From an uncultured Chloroflexia bacterium (lineage in GTDB: Bacteria; Chloroflexota; Limnocylindria; Limnocylindrales; CSP1-4), in NCBI GenBank assembly GCA_963794525.1, contig CAWCEC010000004.1, positions 177,637 through 241,636 on the forward strand: a stretch of 64,000 nt of DNA, written 5' to 3'. Positions 2,129-16,135 of the stretch are shown here, in pieces. The stretch's first letter is position 1, and each line of letters opens with the position of its first letter. The notes under the pieces are model-generated. The model worked only from the letters and a program-made list of their open reading frames with translations, had not been told where the DNA came from and did not search any database. Made by a program: the position numbers and the translations under genes.

Positions 2129-2165
2129 CCGGACGGCTGTCGACGCCGTGTCCAAGGAGGAATCG

Positions 2166-2621
2166 ATGCTGTACGCCTACATCTCGGGCCCGATCGTGAT
2201 CACTGCCGGCCACTGGATCCAGCGTGGCGTCGACACCGAATCGGGCGCACGGGTCGAGATCCGGCGCGTCGAATACGAGGACATCCCTGGTGCCCCGGCC
2301 GGCGTGGCCGGCCTGCGCTTCCTGCCGGTCGGCTCCGGGATCTGGCGGGCGGACCTGTTCCGCGATCAGCATGGGGACGTCATCTACCACTACCACCCGC
2401 AGTTCGAGAAGGGTGACGTCGGCGAGCGCTTCCTCGACGAACAGCTCACCGCGGACCCGGTCGGGTTCGTGCTCGATCGCCTGCGGGACCTGCGGACGGT
2501 CCTCGTCGGCAGTGGCGCCGGCGACATCGCCGATCAGGTCGACTACGCGGAGATCGAGCGTGCTCTGCCCGCGATCCGGGAGGCCATCGAAGCGTCGTTC
2601 GAACCGGGGGACGCCGGCTAG
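2166..2621 (+). CDS. Hypothetical protein (151 aa)
   Basis: AAGGAGG RBS before ATG 2166; globular composition with WRADLF and HYHP motifs; operonic position after the permeases. Confidence 0.7.
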   Translation: MLYAYISGPIVITAGHWIQRGVDTESGARVEIRRVEYEDIPGAPAGVAGLRFLPVGSGIWRADLFRDQHGDVIYHYHPQFEKGDVGERFLDEQLTADPVGFVLDRLRDLRTVLVGSGAGDIADQVDYAEIERALPAIREAIEASFEPGDAG

Positions 2622-3886
2622 GTGTAGCGTGCCCGCCCGCTCTCCGACGTGAGCTGACCACTGCGCACAAGCTCCGCCACTTCGCGGAGATCGGCGAGGT
2701 ATCCGTCGACGTAGGGCTCGTGCCCGGGTGACTGCATGTACCGAAGCGCCGGCACGGGGTGGCTGTCGGCGAACACGATCCAGCCGCGGGCCTCCATGCC
2801 CTTCCCGATGGCATAGATGTCGAGCGTGTCCGAGGTGACCGCGAAGACCGACATGTGGGGCTGGCCCATGACCCGCAGGCCGTCGATGGCCTCGATCCCG
2901 TCCCACCATCGGCGGAGGTACTTCATCGTCCGATCGGCGCGATCCATGTAGCCCTGCTCGCCGAGATAGGTCATGACCGCCCACGCGGCGGCGATCGAGC
3001 CGCCGGGGCGTGTCCCGGTCATGGACGGCGTCACGTACCAGTCGTCGGGGCGAGCGGGGCCTCCGAACCGGAACGGCTGGTTGTCGAAGATCTCGCGGTT
3101 GCGCGACATGATCACGGACGCGCCCTTCGCGGTGTACCCGAACTTGTGCAGATCGGCCGAGATCGTGGTCACGCCGGGGACGCGGAAGTCGAACTTCGGC
3201 ACCGGATAGCCGAGCTTCTCGGCGAACGGCAGGAAGAACCCACCGATGCAGCTGTCGACATGGAAGCCGATATCCCGTTCCGCGGCGAGCGGGGCGAGCT
3301 CCTCGATCGGGTCGACCATGCCGAGGGTCAGGCTGGGCGCCGATGCCACCAGCAGGACCGTGTTGGGGCCGATCGCCGCGCGGTAGGCCTCCTGGTCGAT
3401 CTGTTGGTCGGGCCCGAACCCGACGGGGATGACCCGCAGCCCGAAGTAGTGGGCGCCCTTCGTGAACGCCGGGTGCGCCGACTCCGGGACCACCATCTCG
3501 GGGGCGCTGATCTCGGGATGGAGCCGCCGCGCTCGATCGCGAGCGGACTTGACGCCCATCAGGATCGATTCGGAGCCGCCGGACGTGATGCTGCCGACCG
3601 CATCGGGGCCGTGGAACAGCCCCGCGGCGTAGTCGATCACCTCGCGCTCGAAACGAGCGAGGCTCGGGAACAGGTCGGGCAGCAGCCCGTTCGTCGAGAA
3701 GAACCGCAGGTAGGCCTCCTTGGCCACCTCGAGGACATCCTCGCCGGCAGGGTAGTTCGTCCCCACCGCCATGCGCCGCAGCCAGTCCGCGTCATCTGTC
3801 GCTGCCGCTTCCATCTCCGCCCGCAGCGCGTCCCGGTCGGTGCCTTCGTGTGGGAGGCGCACTCGCTCGTCGGTCGCGCTTGTCAC
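2618..3886 (-). CDS. PLP-dependent group II decarboxylase/aldolase, sphingosine-1-phosphate-lyase-like
   Basis: TSGGSESI, SAHPAFTKGAHYFG, HVDSCIGGF, ISADLHKFGYTAKGAS (PLP lysine), GTRPGG; GGAGGG RBS 5 nt before GTG 3886. Confidence 0.85.
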   Translation of the reverse strand: MTSATDERVRLPHEGTDRDALRAEMEAAATDDADWLRRMAVGTNYPAGEDVLEVAKEAYLRFFSTNGLLPDLFPSLARFEREVIDYAAGLFHGPDAVGSITSGGSESILMGVKSARDRARRLHPEISAPEMVVPESAHPAFTKGAHYFGLRVIPVGFGPDQQIDQEAYRAAIGPNTVLLVASAPSLTLGMVDPIEELAPLAAERDIGFHVDSCIGGFFLPFAEKLGYPVPKFDFRVPGVTTISADLHKFGYTAKGASVIMSRNREIFDNQPFRFGGPARPDDWYVTPSMTGTRPGGSIAAAWAVMTYLGEQGYMDRADRTMKYLRRWWDGIEAIDGLRVMGQPHMSVFAVTSDTLDIYAIGKGMEARGWIVFADSHPVPALRYMQSPGHEPYVDGYLADLREVAELVRSGQLTSESGRARYT

Positions 3887-3901
3887 AACTACCCTCCTGG
3901 A

Positions 3902-3929
3902 CGGATCGCGGATCGCGGATCGCGGATCT
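3902..3929. repeat. Heptamer tandem repeat (CGGATCG)x3 plus a degenerate fourth copy
   Basis: cggatcg cggatcg cggatcg cggatct lies between the palindromic operator and the RBS of the PLP enzyme gene. Confidence 0.8.
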
Positions 3930-3940
3930 CGGGCGGGCCC

Positions 3941-3957
3941 GATTGTCGACAATCTAC
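3941..3957. promoter_or_regulatory. Palindromic operator copy 1, GATTGTCGACAATC-TAC
   Basis: Perfect 14-bp palindrome plus TAC upstream of the PLP enzyme gene; the same motif recurs at 4585, 6346, 13481 and 16124. Confidence 0.75.
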
Positions 3958-3987
3958 GCTATCCCACGGCGTGATCACGTCGCGAGA

Positions 3988-4584
3988 TCAGGCATCGACC
4001 TCCCGGAAGACCTCGGCCAGCGCGACCAGCGCTGACGACAGCGGCCGGTCCAACCACGGTCGCCACACGTCGTTGGGGAATGGCGTGCCGTCGATCGATC
4101 GACCGTTCACGCTGGCCGACCACGCGCCTGCCTCCATGAGCACGGTCGAGCTGTCCCACGGTGGATCGGCCCCGACCCGGCCGGTCGCGACGATGGGCTT
4201 TCCCAACTCGCGCCAGGCGATCTCGACCCGCAGCCCGCCGGCGACGATCTCCCCCTCCAGGGCACCGTCCCGGATGGGTGTCCGCTCGAAGGTCGCCGCT
4301 ATCGCGCTGGCGTCGGGCTCGGCGAGCGGCCACGATCGCGGACTGAGGCGCCCGCGACGGGCCCGATCGAGGTCCGGCGCATCGGTGAGGATGGCTTCAC
4401 CGCCCAGAGCGGCCGGTGCTCGCATGAAGGCAAGGTTCCCGCCGGGCGTATCGGCCGAGTAGGCCACGCTGTACCAGCTCAGGACGAAGGTCGGGTCGTC
4501 GCCCGAGCCGGGCTCCCGGAGCGCGAGGACGAGGTGGTCCGCGACGAGCGCAAGCCGCCCCGGGAGGACCTTCGCGATGCCCAC
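3988..4584 (-). CDS. Hypothetical protein (198 aa, beta-rich)
   Basis: Fills the gap between two minus-strand enzyme genes. GTG start lies 6 nt after a TAGATT -10-like hexamer. No family recognised. Confidence 0.65.
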   Translation of the reverse strand: MGIAKVLPGRLALVADHLVLALREPGSGDDPTFVLSWYSVAYSADTPGGNLAFMRAPAALGGEAILTDAPDLDRARRGRLSPRSWPLAEPDASAIAATFERTPIRDGALEGEIVAGGLRVEIAWRELGKPIVATGRVGADPPWDSSTVLMEAGAWSASVNGRSIDGTPFPNDVWRPWLDRPLSSALVALAEVFREVDA

Positions 4585-4597
4585 GTCGACAATCTAC
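4585..4597. promoter_or_regulatory. Operator copy 2 (GTCGACAATCTAC) overlapping a stop codon and a -10-like hexamer
   Basis: The minus strand reads CTG TAG ATT GTCGAC GTG. TAG is the stop of the ThDP gene, TAGATT fits TANNNT, and GTG starts the next gene. Confidence 0.6.
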
Positions 4598-6244
4598 AGG
4601 CCGGTGTCTCCCGGCAGCGAGAGGGCGAGCTCCTGCGAGGTGATGAACTCCAGGAGGGCGGGCGTCCCGTTCTCGGTCGCCGCGACGGCGCGCCGGATCG
4701 CGGGGACGATCTCGCCGGGCGCCGTGACCCGCTCGCCGTAGCCGCCCAGGGCTCGGGCGATCGCGGCGCAATCGCCCCCGATGTCCGTGCTCCGATAGCG
4801 CTCGGTGGCGATGGGCATGATCGGCAGCTCGATCGCCATCGAGAAGTTGTTCAGCACCACGGTGAGGATCGGGATCCGCTCGCGCACCGCGGTCTCGAAG
4901 TCGAGCCCGGTGAAGCCGAAGGCCGCGTCACCCATCACGTTGATGCACAGCCGGTCCGGGTGGGCGAGCTTGGCGCCCATCGCCAGCCCCAGGCCGTACC
5001 CGAGCTGGGTGGTCTTGCCCCAGCCGATGTACGACAGCGGTTCCGTGGCCGGCCAGAACGGCGAGAGCTGGTCGCGAGGGCTGCCGGCGTCATGAGTGAT
5101 GATCGTGCGAGCGATATCCACCGTCGCCGCGAGATCCGAGATGACCCGGTAGGGCGTCAACGGGACCTCGTCCGAGCGGAGCTTGGACGTCCACTCGGAT
5201 CGCCACGCATCGTTGAGGCTCGCGATGCGCGACGCGATCGTCGTCGCGCGCTCCGTGCGTGGCGTCGGCGATCGTTCGGTGGCGCACTCGATCAGGGCGT
5301 CGAGCACGAGCGCCGCGTCGCCGACGATCGCGATCTCGGCGGGCACACCCTGATCGAGATCGCCGGCGTCAGCCGTGGCGTGGATGTAGCGCTTGCCGGC
5401 CGGCCAGCCGATCCCGTACCCGGTCGGGGTAAAGCTGCAGCCGATGCCAAGCACGACATCCGCCTCGGCCACGAACGTATCGAGCGCACGAGACACCGTC
5501 CGACCGCCAGATCCGAGCGACAACGGATGGGTTTCCGGGAAGGCGCTCTTGCCCTGGAGGCTCGTCGTCACCGGGACGCCGAGCAGCTCGGCGAGGGCAC
5601 GCAAGCCATCCCAGGCCTGGGCGTAGTGGACGCCCTGGCCCGCGTAGATGACCGGTCGATCGGCCGCCATGAGCAGGTCGACCGCCGATTTCGATCGCCA
5701 TCGGATCGGGTGCCGATCGGGCTCGGACCGCCGGTCGATAGCCGTCCGGTGGCTCGACCTCGTCGTCGTACGCGTCCCAAGGGATCTCCACGAGGACCGG
5801 TCGAGGCCGGCCGTTGCGCACCTGCGCGAAGGCTCGACGCATGGTGTCGGGGAGGGCCCGCGAGACCCGGAGCTCGTCGGCCCATTTCGTGATCGGGCGA
5901 TACGCCTCGACGGCCCGGAAGTTCTGGGCGATGCCCATGTCCCGTCGGTCGTGACCGGCCGGCAGGAGGAGGATCGGGACGGAGTCGGCGTACGCCTGGG
6001 CCACGCCACCGAACGAGTTCTCGGCCCCTGGCCCCGACTGCATCGTGAACACGCCGATGCGCTGGCCCGATGTGACCCGGCTCATGGCGTCGGCCATGTG
6101 GATGCCGGTGCGCTCCTGGCGAACGATGATCGGCCGGATGCCGACCGCGGCTGCGGCCTCGATCAACGGGTTGACCGGGTACCCGATCAGCAACTCGACG
6201 CCCTCATGGGCCAGGATGCGGGCGAGGGCGTCGGCGACCCTCAA
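4594..6244 (-). pseudogene. ThDP-dependent enzyme (acetolactate-synthase-like superfamily), split by a +1 frameshift at ~5690
   Basis: N-half RQERTGIHMADA, GPGAEN, RPRPVLVEIP; C-half GWGKTTQLGYGLG and the ThDP motif GDAAFG...VLNN. Removing one A from the minus-strand AAA at 5689-5691 joins the frames (IESAVDLL). TTG start at 6244. Confidence 0.85.
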
Positions 6245-6345
6245 CGATACGGGACAGCAGGGCCTGCGGCTGGAGCGGCCGGAGCGGCCGTCTGCGCCAC
6301 CGTCACGTCTGCCTCCATGCACCGTCGACCAGCCCGGCACCCGCG

Positions 6346-6362
6346 GATTGTCGACAATCTAC
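6346..6362. promoter_or_regulatory. Palindromic operator copy 3, GATTGTCGACAATC-TAC
   Basis: Perfect 14-bp palindrome in the divergent gap between the ThDP gene and the CocE/NonD gene. Confidence 0.75.
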
Positions 6363-6412
6363 GCCATCCGGCCGCACGCTCACCATGGCTGCTGAACTCG
6401 ACAAGGCACGAC

Positions 6413-8434
6413 ATGCACGTCCTCAGGGATCTCCCACGCCCGATCAAGGAGATCGAGAATCTCTGGATCCCGCTCGCCGACGGTGAGCGGATGGCCGCTC
6501 GCGTGTTCCTTCCACGCGACGCGATGACCGAGCCGGTCCCCGCCATCGTCGAATACAACCCTTATCGCAAGCGCGATCTCACCGCCGTCAACAACGAGCC
6601 GTTCCATGGGTATCTCGCAGGCCACGGCTTTGCCGGCGTTCGACTGGAGATCCGCGGCTCCGGTGAATCTGACGGCATCCTTCGCGATGAGTACCTGGCC
6701 CAGGAACTCGCGGATGGGGTGGAGGCCATCGCGTGGCTCGCCCGCCAGCCGTGGTGCAGCGGGAAGGTCGGGCTGATCGGCAACTCGTGGTCCGGATTCA
6801 ACGCCCTCCAGATCGCCGCCCTCCGGCCGCCCGAGCTGGGCGCGATCGTCACGTCGTGCTCCACCGACGACCGCTACGCCGACGACATGCACTACATGGG
6901 CGGCTGCCTGCTCACCGACACGCTGGACTGGGGAGCGATGTTCCAGGCCCTCCTGGCCCTGCCGCCCGACCCCGCCCTCGTCGGCGAGCGATGGCGCGAC
7001 ATGTGGCGAGGGCGCATGGCCGAGGTGTCGGTACCCATCGGATCGTGGCTTCGGCACCAGCGGCGTGACGAATTCTGGCGCCACGGGTCCGTCATCGAAG
7101 ACTACTCGGCGATCGAGGTCCCGGTCCTGGCCGTCGGCGGCTGGCTCGATGGATACTCGAACGCCATCCCACGGCTGCTCGGGGGCCTGGGCGTTCCCCG
7201 CCGGGCGGTCATCGGGCCGTGGGCGCACGCGTACCCGCACCTGGCGGTGCCGGGACCCGGCTACGACTTCCTGGCCGACGTCGTCCGCTGGTTCGACCAC
7301 TGGCTCAAGGGTGTCGACCGCGGAGCGATGGAAGGCCCGATGCTCCGGGCCTGGATGGCCGAGGCCCTTCCGGCTCGCCCGTTCTACTCGACCGCACCCG
7401 GCCGCTGGATCGGCGAGGACGAGTGGCCATCGCCACGGATCGAGCGACGACACTGGTTCCTCCGAGCCGGCCGGCTCGCTGACGCGCCCGGGGATGCCGT
7501 GGTTGCCTGGGCGTCGCCCCGGGTCACCGGCCTGGCGGGCGGCGAGTGGTGCCCGTACGGCACCGGCGGGCGCGGGCCGGAGTTTCCCGGCGACCAGCGC
7601 GAGGACGACGGCCGGTCGCTGACATGGGACTCCCCTCCGCTCGACGGTCGGCTCGAGATCCTCGGGGCTCCGGTCGTGACGCTCGCCCTCTCGGTCGATC
7701 GACCATCCGCCTTCGTCGCGGTCCGGCTGTGCGATGTCGCGCCCGACGGGGCATCGACGAGGGTGACGTTCGGTGTGCTGAACCTCACCCACCGCGATGG
7801 TCACGCGGCGCCCCGCCCGATGGTGCCCGGTGAGCCGACGACGATCCGGGTGCAACTCAACGACGTGGCGTACGCGTTCCTGCCGGGCCACCATGTGCGT
7901 CTCGCGCTGTCGACGGACTACTGGCCCATGGTCTGGCCATCGCCGGAGGCAGTCACCGTGACCGTGCAGGAAGGGCCGTCGACACTGGAGCTGCCGGTGC
8001 GACCTCCACGGCCGGAAGATGCGGCGCTTGCGGACCTGGGCGAGCCCACGTGGGGGCCGCCGGCGCCCGTCACGGAGTTACGTGCCGGCGCCTGGAGCCG
8101 CGAGGTGCGCCACGACGCGGGAAGCGGCGAATCGTCGGTCACCAACAGCGTCGCTGGACCGCTCAGTCACCTCGACCGTACCGGCCGGGCGATCGCGCTC
8201 TCGGGCTTCGACCGATCGACCATCGGGGCCGACGATCCGACGTCGGCACGTGCGGAGAGCCGGCGCGAGTTCGAGATCGTGCGCGATGGCGTCACGATCC
8301 GGGTCACGGCCGAGCTCGATCTGACGTGCACGACCCAAACCTTCGGACTGGTGGTCAGGATGGCCGCGCACGAGGACGACGAGTCGATCTGGGCGCGAGA
8401 GTGGGAGGTCGACATCCCACGCGACCACCTGTGA
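6413..8434 (+). CDS. CocE/NonD-family alpha/beta hydrolase (Xaa-Pro dipeptidyl-peptidase-like)
   Basis: PYRKRD, RGSGESDG, nucleophile motif GNSWSG, GGWLDGY, GPWAH, C-terminal jelly-roll segment (GAPVVTL...VRLCDVAPDG...RLALSTDYWP). Confidence 0.9.
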   Translation: MHVLRDLPRPIKEIENLWIPLADGERMAARVFLPRDAMTEPVPAIVEYNPYRKRDLTAVNNEPFHGYLAGHGFAGVRLEIRGSGESDGILRDEYLAQELADGVEAIAWLARQPWCSGKVGLIGNSWSGFNALQIAALRPPELGAIVTSCSTDDRYADDMHYMGGCLLTDTLDWGAMFQALLALPPDPALVGERWRDMWRGRMAEVSVPIGSWLRHQRRDEFWRHGSVIEDYSAIEVPVLAVGGWLDGYSNAIPRLLGGLGVPRRAVIGPWAHAYPHLAVPGPGYDFLADVVRWFDHWLKGVDRGAMEGPMLRAWMAEALPARPFYSTAPGRWIGEDEWPSPRIERRHWFLRAGRLADAPGDAVVAWASPRVTGLAGGEWCPYGTGGRGPEFPGDQREDDGRSLTWDSPPLDGRLEILGAPVVTLALSVDRPSAFVAVRLCDVAPDGASTRVTFGVLNLTHRDGHAAPRPMVPGEPTTIRVQLNDVAYAFLPGHHVRLALSTDYWPMVWPSPEAVTVTVQEGPSTLELPVRPPRPEDAALADLGEPTWGPPAPVTELRAGAWSREVRHDAGSGESSVTNSVAGPLSHLDRTGRAIALSGFDRSTIGADDPTSARAESRREFEIVRDGVTIRVTAELDLTCTTQTFGLVVRMAAHEDDESIWAREWEVDIPRDHL

Positions 8435-8458
8435 TGGAGCTCGCCGCCCACGAGACGG

Positions 8459-10042
8459 TCAGAGCGACCGCCCCGTCCGGGCTCCCGTAGACCGACCGTC
8501 GATCACGGCCCATGTCCCGTTGACCATGACGCGGTCGATCCCCGACGGCCGCGCCGCCGGGTCTGCTTCGGTCGCCCGGTTGCCGATCGTCGCGGGATCG
8601 AAGACGACCAGGTCCGCTGCGAGTCCCGCTGCCAGGCGTCCGCGGTCGTCCAGCCCGAGCCGTCGGGCCGGCTCGGCGGTGATCTTGCGGACGGCCTCTT
8701 CGATGGTCAGGACGCCACGGTCGCGGACATACGACCCGAGCACCCGCGGGAACGTCCCGAAGCTCTTGGGCATGAGTCCGTAGGCGCGGTGCTTCTCGGG
8801 GTGGTTGGCGAACCCGTCACCGATCGGCACGCACAGCGGACTCGCGATGAGTCGGTCGAGGTGGCCCTGGTCCTTGATCGTCGGCGCGATCCAGAACTGG
8901 CCGTCCTCGAGCACGAGGTCGAGGGCGGTCTCGATCGGTGGCCGGCCCCGTTCTCGGGCGATCTCGCCGATCGACCGACCGGCGAGGCTCGCGTTCTCGG
9001 GGCGATTGACCTTGCAGATGACCTGATCGTCCCAATCCGCCATCCAGAAGTCGGCGTCGGGTCCGGTCAGGAACGCGACGAGCCGGGCACGCGATGCCGG
9101 ATCGCGGATGGCCGCATCGGTGGCCGCGCTTCCGCCGTCGCGCGCCCAGCCCGGGAGGGACTGGACCAACGCCCCGCCGCCGCGGTTGAAGATCGTCAGG
9201 TCGAACGTCACCTCGACGCCGCGACCGCGAGCATCGTCCAGCATCGCCAGCAAGGCGTCGGCTTCCTCGAGCGGCTGGTTCGCGCGCGGGTACATGTGCG
9301 AGATGTTGAGGATGACGCCGGCGCGCTCGGCGGTGTCGAGCGCCTCCCGCACCGAGCCGCGGACGTCGAGGTCGCCGTAGCGCATGTGGGTGTGATAGGT
9401 GAGGCCGCGCTCGGCCGCGACGCCGGCCAGGGCCGCGAGCTCGTCGACCGTCGCGAACAGGCCGGGTGCATAGGACAGGCCGGTCGTGAACCCTCGAGCG
9501 CCCTGGTCGATGGCCTCCCGGACGAGAGACCGCATCCGTTCGAGCTCGGCGGGCGTGGGCGGCCGGTTCGCGCCACCGATCACGAACCGCCGCAACGTGT
9601 TGTGACCGACGAACGTCGTGACGTTCGTCGCCGGCCGTGCGTCGGCGACGGCCTCGCGATAGCCGCCGATCGTGGTCCAGGTCCAGTCGACGCCGGGGAA
9701 GGCGAAGACCGGCTCCTCGTCGATCATGCCCGCGAGGCTGTCCGACGAGAGCGGCCCGGCCGAGAAGCCGCACAGGCCGACCGCCTGGGTGGTGATCCCC
9801 TGCTCGATCGCGCTGAGGCACCCCGGATCACTGAGCAGGGAGACGTCCGAGTGGGTGTGGAGGTCGATGAACCCCGGCGCGACCGCCCGCCCGCCGACGT
9901 CGATCTCCTCGCGTGCCAGCCCGGCCGGCACGGACGCACCGACGGAGACGATCCGGTCGCCGACGATCCCGATGTCGCCCCGGACCGAGGGCCCGCCCGT
10001 CCCGTCGTACAGCTGCGCGTTGCGAAGGACGACGTCGATCAC
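8459..10042 (-). CDS. N-acyl-D-amino-acid deacylase (amidohydrolase superfamily)
   Basis: PGFIDLHTHSD, FVGHNTLR, GLSYAPG, HTHMR, GTFPRVLG, GLAADLVVFDP; GTGA overlap with the GNAT stop. Confidence 0.9.
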   Translation of the reverse strand: MIDVVLRNAQLYDGTGGPSVRGDIGIVGDRIVSVGASVPAGLAREEIDVGGRAVAPGFIDLHTHSDVSLLSDPGCLSAIEQGITTQAVGLCGFSAGPLSSDSLAGMIDEEPVFAFPGVDWTWTTIGGYREAVADARPATNVTTFVGHNTLRRFVIGGANRPPTPAELERMRSLVREAIDQGARGFTTGLSYAPGLFATVDELAALAGVAAERGLTYHTHMRYGDLDVRGSVREALDTAERAGVILNISHMYPRANQPLEEADALLAMLDDARGRGVEVTFDLTIFNRGGGALVQSLPGWARDGGSAATDAAIRDPASRARLVAFLTGPDADFWMADWDDQVICKVNRPENASLAGRSIGEIARERGRPPIETALDLVLEDGQFWIAPTIKDQGHLDRLIASPLCVPIGDGFANHPEKHRAYGLMPKSFGTFPRVLGSYVRDRGVLTIEEAVRKITAEPARRLGLDDRGRLAAGLAADLVVFDPATIGNRATEADPAARPSGIDRVMVNGTWAVIDGRSTGARTGRSL

Positions 10043-10960
10043 AGCAGTGCGTCTGCGCCGGACGTGACGTACCGATCCCACTGCCCCCATGGGGCCGAGG
10101 TGAGCACCAGGGTCACCGCATCGCCATAACGCCAGCCGCGAGCAAGCAATCGCCCGATCGCGTCACGCGCGACGCCCGGGATCCGGAGCCGCGCTGAGGT
10201 CGCGCCGAGACGCGCCGCGACGGCCACCGAGGCGTCGACTGCGGGCGCGAGATCGACCGGATCGACGACGGCGATCGGCCCGATGGCGCCGTCGGACTGC
10301 ACGTAGGCATACCCTGCCGTTCGCCCGTCACGCACGACGGTGTACGCGTGCAGGGTGGAGACCGATGCCCAGAAGGCGTGGTCCTCCGGCCGTGCCGCGT
10401 CGAGCGTCGCGCGGTCGATAGCGTCGAGCGCACCAGCGTCGGGCACGCCTTCGCGAAGCATGTCGGTGGCGCCAGGCGTGGCCGGACCGGCAAGCTCCAT
10501 CAGGGCGAGCTGCGGGAACATCCCGAAGCGGCCGTACAGGCCGTTGGAAACCGGGTTCCGGGCGTCGGCGCCGACGGTCAGCAGGCTGCCGGGTGCCGCG
10601 GCCGCGAGCGCCCGCCGGACGATCTCGGCACCGACGCCCGCGCGACTGGTAGGCCGGCCGAACGTGGAGCGCGGCGAGGTACCAGACGTGCTCGCGCTGG
10701 ACGGCGATGCCGAACCCGACGAGGCCCCCGTCGACCTCGGCGACCCAGAAGCCGTCCGGATCGTGTCGGAGCGCACTCGCGCGAAAGGCCATGAAGCGCT
10801 CGGGTGGTTCGCTGGGTCTGCGCACCGCCGTCCAGCCGCGCGTCCGCGCGAGATCGTCCGCCGCCTCGAGGAAGACGTCGTAGGTCGGTCGCGCGTCGTC
10901 GGGCGTGGCACGGCGGATCGTGATGCCGGTGAGCATCCCGGGCGAGGGTGCGTCGGTCAC
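10039..10960 (-). pseudogene. Two-domain GNAT acetyltransferase, split by a +1 frameshift at ~10638
   Basis: IRRATPDD...WYLAALHVRPAYQSRG in one frame and VGAEIVRR...NGLY in another. Removing one G from the minus-strand GGG (10637-10639) restores the acetyl-CoA motif QSRGVG. Start may be 10960 or 10936. Confidence 0.8.
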
Positions 10961-11013
10961 CGCGCTAGCATCTGCGAGCGGACACATGCACCGCGGACAG
11001 CGAGGAGGTGGGC

Positions 11014-11775
11014 GTGGTCGAGCGGCGATTCGATGGGCGAGTGGCGATCGTGACCGGGGCGGGGCAGGGGATCGGACGGGCGGTCGCGGAACGTCTCGCG
11101 GCTGATGGCGCCGCCGTGGCCGTCGCCGACCTGAACGCCGAGACCGCCGACGAGGTCGTGCGTTCGATCGCGTCGAGCGGCGGTCGCGCCATCGCCGTCA
11201 GGACGGATGTCACGGACCCTGCCGACGCCGAGCGCCTGGCGGCCGACGCCGTGGCGCAGCTCGGACGGATCGACATCCTGGTCAACAACGCCGGGATCCT
11301 GCGGTCGACCCGTGCCGCCGACGTGACGCCCGAGGAATGGCACCTGGTGGTGGACGCCAATCTGACCGGCTCGTTCCTGTGCGCCCGCGCGGCCTACCCG
11401 GCGCTGCGAGCGTCCGGCCACGGCCGCATCGTCAACGTCGCGTCGATGGCCGGCCGGGCGACGAGCACCCTCGGCGGCGTCCATTACACGACCGCCAAGG
11501 CGGGCGTGCTCGGGTTGACCCGCCACCTTGCCCGCGAGTGGGCGCGCGACGGCATCACCGTCAACGCGATCTCGCCGGGGATCGTGGACACGCCCATGGT
11601 CCGAGGCTCCACGGACACCGAACGGATGAGCCAGGTGCTCGCGTCCATCCCACTGGGCCGGCTGGCCGAACCGGCCGAGATCGCCGCATTGATCGCGTTC
11701 CTCGCCTCGGATGACGCCGCATACATCACCGGCACCAACGTCGACATCCACGGTGGCGAGCTGATCATCGCCTGA
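11014..11775 (+). CDS. Short-chain dehydrogenase/reductase (FabG-like)
   Basis: TGAGQGIG, NNAG, catalytic YTTAK, VNAISPG; AGGAGG RBS. Confidence 0.92.
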   Translation: MVERRFDGRVAIVTGAGQGIGRAVAERLAADGAAVAVADLNAETADEVVRSIASSGGRAIAVRTDVTDPADAERLAADAVAQLGRIDILVNNAGILRSTRAADVTPEEWHLVVDANLTGSFLCARAAYPALRASGHGRIVNVASMAGRATSTLGGVHYTTAKAGVLGLTRHLAREWARDGITVNAISPGIVDTPMVRGSTDTERMSQVLASIPLGRLAEPAEIAALIAFLASDDAAYITGTNVDIHGGELIIA

Positions 11776-11793
11776 CCGCGGGGGACGGCGCCG

Positions 11794-13431
11794 CTACCCC
11801 CACGGCTGGCCGAGGGGACCGGTCAGGATCACGACGGATGGGCCTGGCTCGGCCGTCGCTCGCGCCATCGCCGCGGGCAGCTCGAACACGGACTCGACGC
11901 GTTCGGCTCGGGCGCCGAACGACCGCGCGAATGCGAGCAGGTCGGGATTGACGAGATCCGTGGCATAGGCCCGCCCGTGCCGGAGGATCTGGTAGTCGGC
12001 GATGGAGCCGAAGGCCGCGTCGTCGTGGATGAGGACCGTGACATCGAGCTGGTGCGCGACGGCCGTCGCCAGCTCCATGGCGGTGAACAGGAAGCCGCCG
12101 TCTCCGCACGATGCGACGACACGCCGACCCGGCGCGGCGACGGCCGCCCCGTTGGCCGCTCCAAGGGCGAACCCGAGCGTCGCGGAACCCCACGGGAACA
12201 TCGATCCATCCGGCTCGTACACCGGCCAGCAGTAGCCGGTCCAGGAGTTGAGCCGCGCCGCGTCGTGGGTCAGGATCGCCTCGCGCGGCAGGGCGGCACG
12301 AGCAGCGGCGAAGGCGTCGCGGACGGCGCGCTGCTCCCCCGAGACGCCGTCAAACGAACGATCGCGAGTGACTCGTGCCCGATCGCTTCCTCGACCCACA
12401 TCGACGGATGTCGCTCGACGACCCAGCTCCGCGAGCAGGCCCTCCAGCGCCAGGCGCGCATCGCCGCACACCGCCGCTTCGACCGGGTACGAGCGACCGA
12501 GCGCCGCGGGATCGACGTCGATCTGGACAAGGTTCGGGAGCGGCAGCGTCCAGCGTGCGGTCTGCACGTCGTCGAGGCGGCAGCCGACGACAAGCACGGC
12601 GTCCGCCTCTGCCAGCAGGGCGCGACATTCATCGCGCCCGGGATTGAGCACGCCGGCCCACAACGGGTCATCGGCGGGGATCGCGCCCGCGCCGGTGATC
12701 GCTGTCATGACCGGAGCGTCGAGCCGAGTCGCCAGACGGCGGAGCTCTGCCGCGGCTCCGGCGCGTTGCACCCCGGCGCCGGGCACGATCACGACCCGCT
12801 CAGCAGCCGACAGGATGCGCGCCGCCGTGACGACGTCGTCCGGATCCGGGGCGAGCGGGTCGGGGAATGCCGTCCGCGGCGGGTCGCCGTCGGCGCTGGC
12901 CGTCAACAGGTCGGTCGGTAGCTCCACGTAGGCGGGCTGACGGCGGCCGGTCATCGCGCACCGGAGGGCCTCGCCGACTGCCGCGGGGATCGACGCCGCG
13001 GTCCTCGGACGCCCGACGAACGAGGTGACCGCCTCGAAGGAGCGACCCTGGTCCGGCGTCTCGTGCAGGACGCCACGACCCAGTCCATCGAGGGTCGCGT
13101 CGATCTGCCCGGCCAGGACCACGACCGGCGACGAATCCGACCAGGCCTCGGCGACGGCGGCCAGCGTGTTGAACGTTCCTGGCCCGGTCGTCGTCGAGCA
13201 CACGCCCGGTTGACCGGTGACGCGGGCGTATCCGTCCGCCGCGAACGCGGCGCCCTGCTCGTGGCGGGTCAGGATGTGCCGGATGGACGGAGCGGCGGCC
13301 AGCGCGTCATACAGGCCGAGGGTGTGGATCCCGGGGATGCCGAACACCGTTCGGACCTGAGACGTCTCGAGGACCTCGACGATCGCGTCGCCGACCCGTC
13401 GTGCCACCGCCACCTCGCCCGTATCGGCCAT
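11794..13431 (-). CDS. Second ThDP-dependent enzyme (acetolactate-synthase-like)
   Basis: VFGIPG, RHEQGAAFAADGYAR, TTGPG, ThDP motif GDGGFLF...HDD. Confidence 0.9.
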   Translation of the reverse strand: MADTGEVAVARRVGDAIVEVLETSQVRTVFGIPGIHTLGLYDALAAAPSIRHILTRHEQGAAFAADGYARVTGQPGVCSTTTGPGTFNTLAAVAEAWSDSSPVVVLAGQIDATLDGLGRGVLHETPDQGRSFEAVTSFVGRPRTAASIPAAVGEALRCAMTGRRQPAYVELPTDLLTASADGDPPRTAFPDPLAPDPDDVVTAARILSAAERVVIVPGAGVQRAGAAAELRRLATRLDAPVMTAITGAGAIPADDPLWAGVLNPGRDECRALLAEADAVLVVGCRLDDVQTARWTLPLPNLVQIDVDPAALGRSYPVEAAVCGDARLALEGLLAELGRRATSVDVGRGSDRARVTRDRSFDGVSGEQRAVRDAFAAARAALPREAILTHDAARLNSWTGYCWPVYEPDGSMFPWGSATLGFALGAANGAAVAAPGRRVVASCGDGGFLFTAMELATAVAHQLDVTVLIHDDAAFGSIADYQILRHGRAYATDLVNPDLLAFARSFGARAERVESVFELPAAMARATAEPGPSVVILTGPLGQPWG

Positions 13432-13480
13432 GACACCGAGTGTCCATGGCGCAGGGATTGTAGGCGAGGATCGCGCGTCG

Positions 13481-13498
13481 TTGTCGACAATCTACAAT
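13481..13498. promoter_or_regulatory. Operator copy 4 (TTGTCGACAATCTACAAT) with -10-like hexamers for both divergent genes
   Basis: TACAAT at 13493-13498 lies 7 nt before in-frame GTG 13506. A second half-site GATTGTAG near 13456 gives TACAAT on the minus strand. Confidence 0.7.
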
Positions 13499-13505
13499 GT
13501 CGGGC

Positions 13506-14846
13506 GTGCCAGCGACCCGTCCGTGGTTCAGTCGTCTGAACCGCCCGCGAGGGCTGCCCGCGGTGCTCGACCGGCGGAAGAACGGGGTCCGGTCGCAGTC
13601 GACGACGGAGCTCCGCAACTACCAGATGATGCGTGGCGATTCGGTCGCCATGGGCATCATCAACTCGGTGGTCCCGTTCCTCCCCGTGTTCATCGTCCGG
13701 CTGGGTGGATCGGAGTTCGAGGTCAGCCTGCTGACCGCCATACCCGCGGTCAGCGGGTTCCTCCTCGCGATCCCGCTCGGTCAATTCCTCCAGGGCAAGC
13801 CACGGATCGTGCCCTGGTACAGCGGTTCGCGGCTGCTCGCGCACCTGTCATACGCGGTGGCGGCGGTGGTCGTACTCCTCGCACCTCGCCAGATGGTCGT
13901 GCCGGCGTTGCTGGTCGTCTGGGCGATCGCCGCGATCCCCTCGACCCTCGGCATGGTCGCCTTTCCGATCGTCATGGATGGCGCCGCCGGCCCGCGTGGC
14001 CGCTACGAGATCATGGGGCGGCGCTGGGCGATCATGGGGCTGACGACCGCGATCACGGTAGCGATCATCGGCCAGCTGCTGGATCGCCTGCCATTTCCCG
14101 CGAACTACCAGATCGTCTTCGTCGGATTCACCGTGGCAGGCCTCGTCAGCTTCCGCTTCTCCAGCCAATTCCGCGTACCCGCGCACGCGGCCCGACCGCT
14201 CGCGTCCGCCGGTCGACGGCTGGATCGATTGCGCGAGATCGTGCGAACGGTCCGTTCGGAGCCGGCGTTCCTGCGCTACAGCGCGCGTCAATTGGTGTAC
14301 GTGGTCGGCACACGCTTCGCCCTGCCGCTCATCCCGCTCTACTACGTCCGTGAGGTCGGCGCCCCGGATGCCTGGATCGGGATCATCGCTACCGGTCAGG
14401 CGCTGGCGCTGCTCGTCGGCTACCAACTGTGGCGGAAGGTGTCGGTCAAGCGCGGTGGCACGCTGGTCCTGCTGGTCACGCTGTTCGTCAACGCCCTCTA
14501 TCCCGCCGCGCTGTCGCTGGTGGACCAGCTCATCCTCGTCGCCGCGCTCACGGCCCTGGCCGCGGTCTTCAGCGCCGGCGTCGACCTTGCCCTGTTCGAC
14601 GAGCTGATGAAGCGCATCCCGCGGCCATACGGGGTCACGTTCACCTCCATCGACACGGCGCTCGTCAACGGGGCCAGCATCCTGGCGCCGCTTCTGGGTG
14701 CCGCCATCGCCATCGCGCTCGGACTTGCTGTGGCATTGCAGCTGGCGTCCGTGATCGGCCTGCTGGGCGTGATCCTGTTCGCCAGCGACAGTCGGACCAG
14801 CCGGATGGCGGAAGCACGACGCGACGAGGTCGCCGCGCCTGCCTGA
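13506..14846 (+). CDS. MFS transporter
   Basis: About 12 hydrophobic segments in two repeats. Start is GTG 13506 (leaderless-type) or ATG 13497. Confidence 0.85.
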   Translation: MPATRPWFSRLNRPRGLPAVLDRRKNGVRSQSTTELRNYQMMRGDSVAMGIINSVVPFLPVFIVRLGGSEFEVSLLTAIPAVSGFLLAIPLGQFLQGKPRIVPWYSGSRLLAHLSYAVAAVVVLLAPRQMVVPALLVVWAIAAIPSTLGMVAFPIVMDGAAGPRGRYEIMGRRWAIMGLTTAITVAIIGQLLDRLPFPANYQIVFVGFTVAGLVSFRFSSQFRVPAHAARPLASAGRRLDRLREIVRTVRSEPAFLRYSARQLVYVVGTRFALPLIPLYYVREVGAPDAWIGIIATGQALALLVGYQLWRKVSVKRGGTLVLLVTLFVNALYPAALSLVDQLILVAALTALAAVFSAGVDLALFDELMKRIPRPYGVTFTSIDTALVNGASILAPLLGAAIAIALGLAVALQLASVIGLLGVILFASDSRTSRMAEARRDEVAAPA

Positions 14847-14855
14847 TCGGGCCGG

Positions 14856-16076
14856 TCAGGCCACCGGGAGCGGGATGAGGCGGCCGGCGTGCATGACCAT
14901 CCGCGGGCGGGCCAGCCGGCTGAGATCGCTGAGCGGATCGCCGTCGACCAGGATCATGTCGGCGATCTTGCCCGGCTCCACGATCCCTACCTCGTCATCG
15001 ATCCCGAGGAGGCGGGCTGCCGTGGACGTGGCAGCCTGGATCGCCCCCATGGCGGAGGCCCCGTGGTCGTGGAGGAGGACGACCTCTCGCCAGAGCATCT
15101 CGGGCAGGACACCGCGCACGCCGGTATCGGTGCCGGTCGCCACCTCGACCCCGAGTCGGATGGCCGTTTCGCATGACCGGCGATGCAGCCGTTCGATCTC
15201 GTTCTGGCGTTCGCGTTGTGCGGGCGTCAGGCCCTCGAGGTCCCGCCAGACGTCAGTCACGGTGAGCGTCGGCACGAGGGTCGTGCCGGTCTCGACGAGC
15301 GTGGCGAGGGCCGCCTCATCGGCGAGGAACGCATGTTCCACGCTCGCGACGCCCGCCCGCGCGGATCGTCGGACCGATTCGCTGTTCTGGGCATGGCTGA
15401 GGACCCGTCGTCGGAGCCTGGTCGCCTCGTTCACGACGGCCGCCAGCTCGGCGCCGCTCACTTCCTCCACGCCGGCCACCGACGACGTGAGCATGGCCGC
15501 CTCGCTCGAGACGATCTTGATCACGTCCGCGCCATCTCGGACGTTGGCGCGGACCGCGCGAACGAACTCGAGCTCGCCGTCGGCTTCGCGGCCGAAGAGG
15601 TGCCCGTGCCCGCCGGTGATCGTCAGGGCGGGCCCGGCGGCCAGCAGGCGCGGTCCCACGACCTGGCCGGCGGCGATCGCCGCGCTCAGGACCACGTCGA
15701 GATTCGCGGGCGACCCGCCGCTCCGCGCCGTCGTCACGCCCGCCTCGAGGGCCCGCCGGGCCATGCCGGCGGCACGCAGGACGAGTCGTTCGATCGGCTC
15801 GTGGCGGTAGAGCAGGAACCCGTCCTCGACGGTCGGGTCGATGGTGTAGTGGGCGTGGCAATCGATCAGGCCAGGCAGCAGCGTACCGCCCGACGCGTCG
15901 ATGACCGTCGCGCCGGCAAGCGGGGCAGCGGATCCGGGCGCGGCGACGGCGGCGATCCGATCGCCCTCCACGACCACGTCCACGTCGACCCGCACCGGGC
16001 CTCCGGTGCCATCGATCAGTCGGGCGCCACGGAAGACGATGGGAGCGGTTCCGCCGGGCGAGGAGCGCGCGAGCAC
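14856..16076 (-). CDS. Metal-dependent amidohydrolase (Xaa-Pro dipeptidase-like)
   Basis: PGLIDCHAH, GGHG, DVIK (carboxylatable Lys position), SHA, EHA, GTD, GKIAD; GGAGGA RBS 9 nt before GTG 16076. Confidence 0.88.
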   Translation of the reverse strand: MLARSSPGGTAPIVFRGARLIDGTGGPVRVDVDVVVEGDRIAAVAAPGSAAPLAGATVIDASGGTLLPGLIDCHAHYTIDPTVEDGFLLYRHEPIERLVLRAAGMARRALEAGVTTARSGGSPANLDVVLSAAIAAGQVVGPRLLAAGPALTITGGHGHLFGREADGELEFVRAVRANVRDGADVIKIVSSEAAMLTSSVAGVEEVSGAELAAVVNEATRLRRRVLSHAQNSESVRRSARAGVASVEHAFLADEAALATLVETGTTLVPTLTVTDVWRDLEGLTPAQRERQNEIERLHRRSCETAIRLGVEVATGTDTGVRGVLPEMLWREVVLLHDHGASAMGAIQAATSTAARLLGIDDEVGIVEPGKIADMILVDGDPLSDLSRLARPRMVMHAGRLIPLPVA

Positions 16077-16123
16077 GACCAGGCTTCCTCCAGCGGGGAA
16101 GGGCGCCGCGATCCGGGGCGCGA

Positions 16124-16135
16124 TCGACAATCTAC
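16124..16135. promoter_or_regulatory. Operator copy 5 (TCGACAATCTAC)
   Basis: About 50 nt upstream of the amidohydrolase start, same orientation as the other four copies. Confidence 0.6.

Follow-up and report, generated by a model that had tools for sequence, protein, structure and literature searches.

A palindromic repeat confined to one 150-kb block of a soil Limnocylindria genome is a predicted operator of a FadR-subfamily GntR regulator

We analyzed a 64-kb stretch of DNA (hereafter the window) from an uncultured soil Chloroflexota bacterium, a Limnocylindria MAG with a genome of 3.17 Mb, in which a short sequence recurs in front of metabolic genes. In its complete form the element is the 20-bp palindrome GTAGATTGTCGACAATCTAC, and its copies are very likely operators of N, a FadR-subfamily GntR+FCD factor that we predict to repress by promoter occlusion. 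The motif, its distribution, its conservation, its co-occurrence with N and its promoter geometry were observed directly in the genomes compared.

A search of the window located GTCGACAATCTAC exactly at 3945, 4585, 6350 and 13483, and with one mismatch (12/13), as ATCGACAATCTAC, at 16123, all on the plus strand; a sixth match is only the reverse reading of the palindrome at 6343. Shuffled windows gave an expectation of 1.2 matches, and none of 100 shuffles contained six or more. The five copies of the original prediction are therefore real, as is the perfect 14-bp palindrome reported in two of them, which reads GATTGTCGACAATC at 3941 and 6346. Their placement between genes or at gene starts holds overall, although the copy at 4585 overlaps the stop codon of a ThDP gene. 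The shared orientation also stands, but it does not amount to an oriented operator, since what all five copies retain is the arm that forms the -10 box of a minus-strand gene. Seen at full length, the copies resolve into three full or nearly full sites and two half-sites (4585-4597 and 16123-16135), at which a dimer would be expected to bind weakly at best (Table 1). As a side observation, the recurring "MSTIY" N-termini of the longest open reading frames are artefacts, because TTG TCG ACA ATC TAC is the motif itself; these start codons are not used.

Table 1. Genes and predicted operator sites in the motif-bearing part of the window (window coordinates)
Feature	Position	Strand	Remarks
Group II PLP decarboxylase-like (MfnA/GAD-like, below family cut-offs)	2618..3862	-	target of site 3938
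Predicted operator site CCCGATTGTCGACAATCTAC	3938..3957	.	perfect 14-bp core; 30.5 bits
Conserved 198-aa protein, no assigned function	3988..4584	-	~60 homologous clusters, nearly all 197-203 aa
Half-site GTAGATTGTCGAC	4585..4597	-	overlaps ThDP TAG stop; abuts GTG start of 198-aa gene
ThDP enzyme, acetolactate-synthase-like	4594..6340	-	target of site 6343
Predicted operator site GCGGATTGTCGACAATCTAC	6343..6362	.	intergenic, ThDP (-)/CocE-NonD hydrolase (+); 32.6 bits
CocE/NonD (S15) hydrolase	6386..8434	+	divergent from ThDP gene; family search
Amidohydro_3/Amidohydro_1 metallo-hydrolase	8459..10090	-	"aminoacylase" of the original prediction
GNAT acetyltransferase	10039..10987	-	apparently frameshifted in assembly
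Short-chain dehydrogenase (SDR)	11008..11775	+	
Second ThDP enzyme	11794..13431	-	target of site 13476
Predicted operator site CGTCGTTGTCGACAATCTAC	13476..13495	.	intergenic, second ThDP (-)/MFS (+); 22.4 bits
MFS transporter	13497..14846	+	divergent from second ThDP gene
Amidohydro_1 hydrolase	14856..15995	-	behind broken site 16116
Broken operator (predicted)	16116..16135	-	upstream of amidohydrolase gene; GTAGATTGTCGAT, then ~10 extra bases

Several genes in this segment needed closer reading. The first ThDP gene is split, with its N domain in frame 5369-6340 and its M and C domains in frame 4594-6009; in relatives it is intact and encodes 549-550 aa. It is always followed by the gene for the 198-aa protein, which has no match in Pfam or NCBIfam. 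In the GNAT gene, the Acetyltransf_1 match is limited to the N-terminal half (frame 10328-10987). The families nearest to the second ThDP enzyme are PRK08266 and 5-guanidino-2-oxopentanoate decarboxylase, and the one nearest to the Amidohydro_1 hydrolase is the Caulobacter-type Xaa-Pro dipeptidase, all three below cut-off.

The five copies had been thought to define a 12-kb regulon; they are instead the distal end of a longer series, of which the window contains the last 12 kb. Genome-wide, 15 strong sites (at least 22 bits) all fall within C4:43,558-191,131, and the next best match scores 15.6 bits. Together with one weak site and the two half-sites, the set extends over about 150 kb (C4:43.5-194 kb) of genes for catabolism and transport; the other five contigs of the genome yielded no copy, and the scan found the motif at no unrelated locus. 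All operator sites are intergenic. In 82 sites, the GT, the AC and the flanking A/T positions of the core ATTGTC·GACAAT are nearly invariant, and the core matches NyGTM-N0-KACNy, within the FadR-subfamily operator consensus NyGTM-N0-1-KACNy (PMC4494728), bearing out the GntR/FadR assignment made at the outset. A literature search for TTGTCGACAA retrieved only cloning primers with SalI sites and no known operator.

The regulator had been expected to lie outside the window. We found no GntR gene in the window, and a GntR gene with its own site lies 70 kb upstream of it. This gene, N (C4:107800-108492; GntR domain at C4:107845-108027 in the whole-genome scan), encodes a GntR winged helix-turn-helix (PF00392, residues 16-76, 58.5 bits against a cut-off of 27) followed by an FCD domain (PF07729, residues 87-218, 84.1 bits against 24.3), and its nearest solved structures are FCD GntR regulators (7xp0, 3c7j, 3ihu, 6z74, McbR 4p9f and PdhR 9jpj). 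In the metal-dependent FCD group, the metal-binding residues are typically one Asp and three His; D137, H141, H194 and H216 are invariant in the orthologues of N and of its paralogue N2 and are candidate metal ligands. N falls far below the cut-off of all NCBIfam equivalogs compared, CsiR among them, PhnR (phnR_burk) being the best at 112/271, followed by NanR (56.7/260), LldR (39/311), GlcC (37/301) and PdhR (34/330), and is therefore not the orthologue of a known regulator.

Motif and regulator travel together. Multiple motif copies occur in exactly 6 of the 37 genomes of the genus, and those six alone encode an N orthologue with an identity of 76% or more; the best matches in the others do not exceed 49%. 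The PLP decarboxylase-like gene is likewise found only in genomes with both motif and regulator, its orthologues of at least 76% identity being confined to G000, G002, G019 and G023 (25 genus genomes searched, without G029). Among the genomes searched, the motif, N and this target gene thus mark the same members of the genus and no others. In about 20 MAGs the palindrome stands 65-100 bp upstream of the start of N (or N2); upstream of N it is invariant in five congeners whose flanks have diverged. In MAG loci L013-L031 and L035 it precedes every N- or N2-type gene with enough upstream sequence, and it is absent from the MAG loci of more distant GntR genes.

N2 (C4:139996-140632) is 46-53% identical to N overall and about 76% identical in the helix-turn-helix and wing, and the recognition helix and wing share the invariant pattern VSR[G/A]PVREA[L/I]R...FPHRGAVVVG. 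N2 occurs in the same genomes as N and the motif and lies inside a site-controlled operon in G029; in L032 and L033 a site 3.7-4.1 kb upstream of the N2 gene is consistent with a G029-like arrangement, and in L030 a site directly precedes one N2-type gene. These observations would also suit a palindrome bound by N2 alone, with N merely a regulated target, but we consider this improbable. In every genome examined the own-promoter site belongs to N and not to N2, and in G000 N2 is split by a frameshift, yet the sites there are intact. Moreover, with DNA-reading heads so nearly identical, it is more likely that both proteins bind than that one does so exclusively. From the similarity of its head, N2 probably also binds the 20-bp palindrome; given the near-identical heads, the co-occurrence and the G029 operon, the sequence data are compatible with binding by N, by N2 or by both.

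The position of the palindrome relative to promoters points to how N would act. The arms read TAGATT, with TTGAC boxes 17-18 bp upstream. Of the 124 TAnnnT arms (97 sites), 31% are preceded, with a spacer of 17-18, by a hexamer that matches TTGACA in five or more of its six positions; control offsets give 2% and non-TA arms 3%, all counted on sites that include orthologous promoters and are hence non-independent. TTGAC/TGGAC pentamers concentrate at spacers 17 (n=21) and 18 (n=33), with three or fewer at each other spacer, and in one-directional promoters it is the upstream arm that is conserved. No convincing -35 box was found in the window promoters. The overlap is not universal, since the arms of the conserved Mo-dehydrogenase/AstE site (TGGATT/TCGATT) are not -10-like. 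With arms and boxes so spaced, the site would span both the -10 box and the point where transcription begins, an arrangement that implies repression through promoter occlusion.

In the mechanism that we propose, a dimer of N would bind GTAGATTGTCGACAATCTAC, each arm of which would double as the sigma-70-type -10 hexamer TAGATT, the recognisable -35 boxes being TTGACN or TGGACN at 17-18 bp upstream of the arm. Once bound, the protein would mask the -10 box together with the start of transcription, blocking RNA polymerase, and at divergent gene pairs a single site would serve two face-to-face promoters. TTGACG-N18-TAGATTGTCGACAATCTAC is the promoter form whose repression by N is predicted. The repressor would be released by a small-molecule effector, probably a carboxylate bound to the FCD metal site. 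Binding itself, the choice of repression over activation, and the effector are inferred.

The -10-like arms with their -35 boxes, and the fact that one-directional promoters conserve just the upstream arm beyond the core, could also be read as a strong promoter element only, a -10 box with a conserved start region and no dedicated repressor. This is very unlikely. Invariance is highest in the central ATTGTCGACAAT, at 2.3-2.7 bits per position, and these positions stay symmetric even where transcription runs one way; a sigma factor does not read central operator positions. In addition, the motif is restricted to one cluster and to N-carrying genomes, and is missing from housekeeping promoters in the rest of the genome. 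That the palindrome serves another DNA-binding protein, whether of a different family or a nucleoid or partition protein, is hardly credible when the core fits the GntR/FadR consensus exactly, the co-occurrence with N is perfect, the own-promoter site recurs in about 20 genomes, and the remaining GntR genes of the cluster (N2 in G000 and a third gene at C4:174 kb, only 34% identical) have no adjacent site.

Operators of N would be expected to persist in front of orthologous genes, and the motif was kept at most promoters checked: in 6/6 relatives at the PLP-gene promoter, in 3/3 at both the 2-hydroxyacid dehydrogenase/Gfo and the Mo-dehydrogenase/AstE pairs, in all at the FMN dehydrogenase/N pair, in 3/3 at the first ThDP gene and in 1/1 at the second. 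For the amidohydrolase gene, the site is kept directly or via the PLP gene in eight of nine relatives checked; the G029 match, only 53% identical, may be paralogous, and in G002 no site was seen upstream of the gene. Between species whose proteins are 60-90% identical, the distance from a site to the orthologous start codon is fixed, and the gene order of the cluster varies between species. The near-identical copies, the two truncated ones in the window and this variable order might recall a dispersed repeat, a MITE- or REP-like mobile element or a recombination site, none of them regulatory, but this can practically be dismissed given the fixed distances, the lack of copies elsewhere in the genome, and a similarity that ends at 20 bp, beyond which the flanks are unrelated except for the -35 boxes. 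A copy-and-paste promoter cassette was also rejected, as the N18 spacers differ along with the flanks.

The individual window sites differ in their histories. At 3938-3957 the right arm is TAGATT when read on the minus strand, towards the PLP decarboxylase-like gene, and orthologues of this gene have a site at equal distance in G019, G023, G029, G061 and two metagenome contigs. The site between the first ThDP and CocE/NonD genes is kept in the equivalent intergenic region of G061, L086 and L087. At the second ThDP gene the left arm is degenerate and the core and right arm are intact; the orthologous promoter of G019 has the same asymmetric site, TGTAGATTGTCGACAAC. The half-site at the junction of the first ThDP and 198-aa genes is lineage-specific, as it is present in G000, partial (GTAGATTGTCGGG) in the closest metagenome relative and absent from G061 and L086; it is recent and of uncertain function, and it may serve a leaderless transcript as its internal -10 box. 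Judged by alignment, the amidohydrolase-gene operator is broken by an insertion of about 10 bp: the extra bases stand where the second arm lies in relatives, and G061 and G065 have the full palindrome at the equivalent position. In G063, where the sequence failed to align, coordinates alone place a site about 96 bp upstream of the gene. In G019 and G023 the amidohydrolase gene lies downstream of the PLP gene, under the PLP-gene site, and site spacing indicates the same arrangement in G062 and G064.

The predicted regulon comprises at least 35 genes and probably about 55. The window genes had been assigned to one pathway for a single N-acylated or amino substrate; the gene set of the block is instead highly paralogous (five MR_MLE, five Gfo/Idh/MocA and four 2-hydroxyacid dehydrogenase genes, among others) and looks like many parallel short catabolic routes. 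With this heavy paralogy, and because no enzyme rose above an equivalog cut-off in the family annotations, no single pathway can be named. The predicted regulon also includes sugar-type ABC importers, three BNR_2 sialidase-like genes, two DHDPS/NanA-type aldolases, an epimerase and a PIG-L deacetylase. A compositionally foreign island was considered and rejected, as GC stays flat between 0.68 and 0.72. C4:1-260 kb has a single tRNA, which maps to 33.7 kb, some 10 kb outside the first site, with none in the block, and the 847-aa gene on the right flank, used for border synteny, is multi-paralogous and lies elsewhere in relatives.

In each of the six genomes the sites are confined to 100-160 kb. 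This may reflect a conserved "regulon island", a possibility that we put forward tentatively and rate somewhat short of even: a block present or absent as a unit in the different species of the genus and holding all operators of two paralogous FCD regulators with one head and diverged sensors. Two signals would then act on one operator through the shared head and the diverged sensor domains, and, the operator consisting of two face-to-face -10 boxes, one dimer would shut two divergent promoters. If true, about 50 heterogeneous catabolic genes would be wired into one switch; we know of no such 50-gene single-switch wiring described for FadR-type regulators.

FadR-subfamily repressors with palindromic operators, including LldR, PdhR, GlcC, DgoR, HypR and DipR, have been surveyed (PMC4494728). 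N resembles them in its GntR winged helix-turn-helix plus FCD architecture, in the fit of its predicted operator to their consensus, in having one central, promoter-overlapping site in the divergon of the regulator gene, and in targets that are catabolic and transporter genes for carboxylate-type substrates. As with LldR, an FMN-dependent 2-hydroxyacid dehydrogenase is encoded beside the regulator. However, those six typically control one or two operons, whereas the predicted regulon of N has about 17 sites and about 35-55 genes; the confinement of its sites and the paralogous second regulator with the same head also set it apart from the LldR-type examples. NanR of E. coli is likewise an FCD regulator, and the sialidase-like, aldolase and deacetylase genes recall its role in sialic-acid catabolism. 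Yet N scores far below the NanR cut-off, most of its predicted regulon is unrelated to sialic-acid use, and NanR binds GGTATA direct repeats rather than a palindrome (PMC4494728).

The mechanism is an ordinary one, and it reveals neither a new pathway nor a new kind of regulation; less ordinary are the conserved confinement of the sites and the second paralogous regulator with its near-identical head. Limnocylindria, Chloroflexota that abound in soil and freshwater, have to our knowledge no cultured, genetically tractable member, and their gene regulation is almost unstudied. For this class, our analysis provides a predicted regulator-operator pair that can be tested, some 100 examples of the site, and a sigma-70-type promoter architecture (TTGACN, a 17-18 bp spacer and TAGATT). 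It also points to about 50 catabolic genes predicted to be co-controlled, whose substrates could be sought through the ligand of the regulator. Finally, the confinement to 100-160 kb in six genomes offers a natural case for asking why regulons cluster, and for studying whether local search by the regulator or the gain and loss of the block as a unit is the cause.

The repeat described in the window by the original prediction, with four exact copies of GTCGACAATCTAC and a fifth with one mismatch, was found as described, always on the + strand (table); window shuffles yield 1.2 matches on average, and none of 100 reached the observed count. A whole-genome scan identified this repeat as the right-hand part of a longer element, the 20-bp palindrome GTAGATTGTCGACAATCTAC, and two of the window copies lie in the perfect palindrome GATTGTCGACAATC. 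A position matrix trained on 82 sites from the genome under study (G000) and its relatives returned 15 sites of 22-41 bits in the assembly (3.17 Mb, six contigs, 69.5% G+C), all in one stretch of contig C4, on which the window occupies 177637-241636, with the next best match genome-wide at 15.6 bits. Together with one weak site, at a promoter that has a good site in relatives, and two half-sites in the window, these amount to 18 copies in 150 kb, every one of them intergenic, and the palindrome scan found no copy on the other five contigs. The set thus extends far beyond the window, which covers just its final 12 kb. Two of the operators lie 91 bp apart, between aminotransferase and aldehyde-dehydrogenase operons; each probably controls its own operon, because the same two are 2.3 kb apart in the related genome G023.

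Positions of features in the window and elsewhere on its contig (C4, CAWCEC010000004.1)
Feature	Position	Strand
DUF7700 paralogue	window 2148-2621	+
PLP gene	window 2618-3862	-
Tandem heptamer in PLP leader	window 3895-3925	
Perfect palindrome	window 3941, 6346	
Exact repeat	window 3945, 4585, 6350, 13483	+
One-mismatch repeat	window 16123	+
198-aa gene	window 3988-4584	-
First ThDP gene	window 4594-6340	-
GNAT gene	window 10039-10987	-
Second ThDP gene	window 11794-13431	-
Amidohydrolase	window 14856-15995	-
Extra bases interrupting the amidohydrolase operator	window 16126-16116	-
GAF/GGDEF/EAL gene (1333 aa)	window 16170-20171	-
Only tRNA in C4:1-260 kb	C4:33.7 kb	
Range of the 15 matrix sites	C4:43,558-191,131	
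Low-coding region	C4:70-80 kb	
Regulator N	C4:107800-108492	
Paired operators	C4:117611, C4:117702	
Weak site	C4:129,915	
Regulator N2	C4:139996-140632	
Split or nonsense-tailed block genes	C4:97501-98277, 116901-117584, 139996-140632, 146067-148418, 167596-168630	
DUF7700 paralogue	C4:167067-167534	-

The regulator had been expected outside the window, and the searches bear this out: a GntR helix-turn-helix (HTH) model has ten matches in the genome, three of them inside the 150-kb block and none within the window. Our candidate, N, is a 230-aa protein with GntR and FCD domains. A palindrome with one mismatch lies 65 bp from its start, with a divergent FMN-dependent 2-hydroxyacid dehydrogenase on the opposite side, and this palindrome is invariant in five congeners while the surrounding DNA has diverged. 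Among loci fetched with N as query, the core lies 65-100 bp upstream of every gene of the N or N2 (paralogue) type with enough upstream sequence (MAG loci L013-L031 and L035), and it is absent from all more distant GntR loci of other phyla. Multiple motif copies occur in 6 of 37 genomes of the genus, and exactly those six carry an orthologue of N at 76% identity or above (49% at most in the others); the chance of such a 6-versus-31 split is about 4 in 10 million if the genomes were independent, a figure that is only indicative given their relatedness. Orthologues of the window PLP gene at 76% or more were restricted to G000, G002, G019 and G023 among 25 genus genomes searched, G029 excluded. 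Finally, the core ATTGTC·GACAAT conforms exactly to the FadR-subfamily operator consensus, NyGTM-N0-1-KACNy (PMC4494728). An autoregulatory site, co-occurrence and family fit thus form three lines of sequence evidence that point to N as the reader of the motif, and the operator proposed originally was the right idea. N falls below every NCBIfam equivalog cut-off and is an uncharacterised member of the FadR subfamily. Its close relatives come from soil MAGs labelled Candidatus Limnocylindrales, Chloroflexota or Chloroflexia, many from long-read 'MFD' assemblies.

N2, whose gene is split in the G000 assembly, shares 46-53% identity with N and is present in the same genomes. Comparison of the N and N2 groups gives about 76% identity across the HTH and wing, where the recognition helix and wing hardly vary at all, and only about 42% across the FCD domain; N and N2 therefore probably read one operator but sense different ligands. 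N2 lies within an operon beginning at a site in G029, and sites 3.7-4.1 kb upstream of N2 in L032 and L033 are compatible with the same arrangement.

In both arms the palindrome reads TAGATT, a sequence of the -10 hexamer type. Between N and the FMN dehydrogenase, a conserved TGGACG on one side and TTGACT (opposite strand) on the other each lie 18 bp from the site, so that the region has two face-to-face promoters that use the arms as -10 boxes. Across 97 sites, some of them orthologous and so not independent, 31% of the 124 TAnnnT arms match TTGACA at five or more of six positions with a spacer of 17-18, compared with 2% when control offsets are used and 3% among arms lacking TAnnnT. TTGAC/TGGAC pentamers occur in 54 cases at spacers 17 and 18 and in at most three at any other position. 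The promoters in the window show no clear -35 box, and the site between the Mo-dehydrogenase and AstE genes has the arms TGGATT/TCGATT, which are not -10-like. In one-directional promoters the gene-upstream arm is conserved and the other decays; the five window copies share an orientation because each keeps the arm serving a minus-strand gene. With a dimer on the palindrome, both the -10 box and the transcription start would be covered, as in classical repression that works by excluding RNA polymerase, and the position of the operator thus suggests repression rather than activation.

Conservation of the sites was followed in retrieved DNA flanking the motif in G019, G023 and G029, in which orthologues of G000 genes were located, and in additional relatives reached via the 198-aa gene and the amidohydrolase. 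Sites lie at nearly equal distances from orthologous start codons for eight genes or gene pairs: the PLP gene (kept in 6/6 relatives), the 2-hydroxyacid dehydrogenase/Gfo pair (3/3), Mo-dehydrogenase/AstE (3/3), first ThDP gene/CocE (3/3), DUF7700/2-hydroxyacid dehydrogenase (2/3), the HpcH aldolase (2/2), FMN dehydrogenase/N (all) and second ThDP gene/MFS (in G019). One of the two DUF7700 paralogues in the block is divergent from a site and the other adjoins the PLP gene, a position conserved in G061 and in L087, the closest metagenome relative. The PLP leader contains a tandem heptamer (GATCCGC, about 3.5 copies), which recurs as about five imperfect copies (GATGCGC/GATCCGC) in L087 and is missing from G061 and L086.

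Two of the window copies are half-sites. Behind the last one, the G000 amidohydrolase operator reads GTAGATTGTCGAT followed by about 10 extra bases (CGCGCCCCGG); these break what G061 and G065 have as a full palindrome in the corresponding position, so the operator is either broken in G000 or affected by an assembly error. In G063 a site lies about 96 bp upstream of the amidohydrolase, judged by coordinates because the sequence did not align. The gene sits downstream of the PLP gene and under its site in G019 and G023, and likewise, by site spacing, in G062 and G064; no site was seen upstream of it in G002, and the G029 match, only 53% identical, may be a paralogue. The copy at 4585 overlaps the TAG stop codon that ends the first ThDP gene and lies directly against the GTG start codon of the conserved 198-aa gene; since the closest metagenome relative has part of it and two further relatives lack it, this copy is recent and of uncertain function. 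The 198-aa protein has no Pfam or NCBIfam match but about 60 homologous clusters of near-identical length, and in the relatives examined its gene directly follows the ThDP gene and precedes the PLP decarboxylase-like gene, making it a candidate subunit or partner of the ThDP/PLP pair.

At least 35 called genes fall in operons that begin at sites, and the regulon probably comprises about 55 of the block's roughly 127 genes when split genes and long operons are counted. It includes enolase-superfamily (MR_MLE) proteins and Gfo/Idh/MocA oxidoreductases (five copies each), D-2-hydroxyacid dehydrogenases and MalK-type ABC ATPases (four each), BNR_2 proteins (three), and FMN 2-hydroxyacid dehydrogenases, DHDPS-type aldolases and ThDP enzymes (two each), with several amidohydrolases and GNAT and SDR genes. 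Single enzymes are an HpcH aldolase, an aldehyde dehydrogenase, a Mo-dehydrogenase, an AstE/AspA deacylase, a CocE/NonD hydrolase, a PIG-L deacetylase and an isoaspartyl peptidase; PLP enzymes are represented by a group II decarboxylase, class III and class V aminotransferases, a PALP enzyme and a D-serine-dehydratase-like enzyme, and transport by an oligopeptide-type ABC ATPase and MFS transporters. No regulon enzyme scored above an equivalog cut-off. With so many paralogues, the set is better read as numerous short routes running in parallel, for carboxylates of the amino-acid-derived and sugar-acid-like kinds, than as one linear pathway; given 18 copies over 150 kb, the 12-kb, one-pathway regulon first proposed was too narrow. 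Just past the last motif copy starts a gene for a 1333-aa protein with four GAF, two GGDEF and one EAL domain, which has no site of its own.

The clustering is itself conserved. In five more well-assembled genomes (2.8-4.3 Mb), the 14-bp core occurs 9-12 times per genome, with every copy inside a single span, of 162 kb in G061, 157 kb in G062, 131 kb in G063, 97 kb in G064 and 119 kb in G065. The G000 block is not distinct in composition from its surroundings and contains no tRNA, the nearest lying about 10 kb before the first site. In one mid-block region the coding score is very low and few genes can be called (37% coverage). Many block genes are frame-split or end in arginine/proline-rich nonsense tails; besides N2, the first ThDP gene and the GNAT gene, the splits affect an aminotransferase, a Gfo/Idh/MocA gene and two ATPases. 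Relatives carry intact orthologues, and the splits are probably indel errors of this long-read MAG (80% estimated completeness in 6 contigs) rather than pseudogenes.

In summary, our analysis yields a solid but mechanistically ordinary regulon prediction. N is orthologous to none of the named FadR-subfamily regulators, and its system resembles those of the classical repressors (LldR, PdhR, GlcC, DgoR and others) in every family feature that sequence can address. It departs from the usual picture of the subfamily in its larger number of operators, in their strict, conserved confinement to one 100-160-kb block found in only part of the genus, in the presence of a second regulator that shares the DNA-reading head, and in an operator whose two arms would both serve as -10 boxes.
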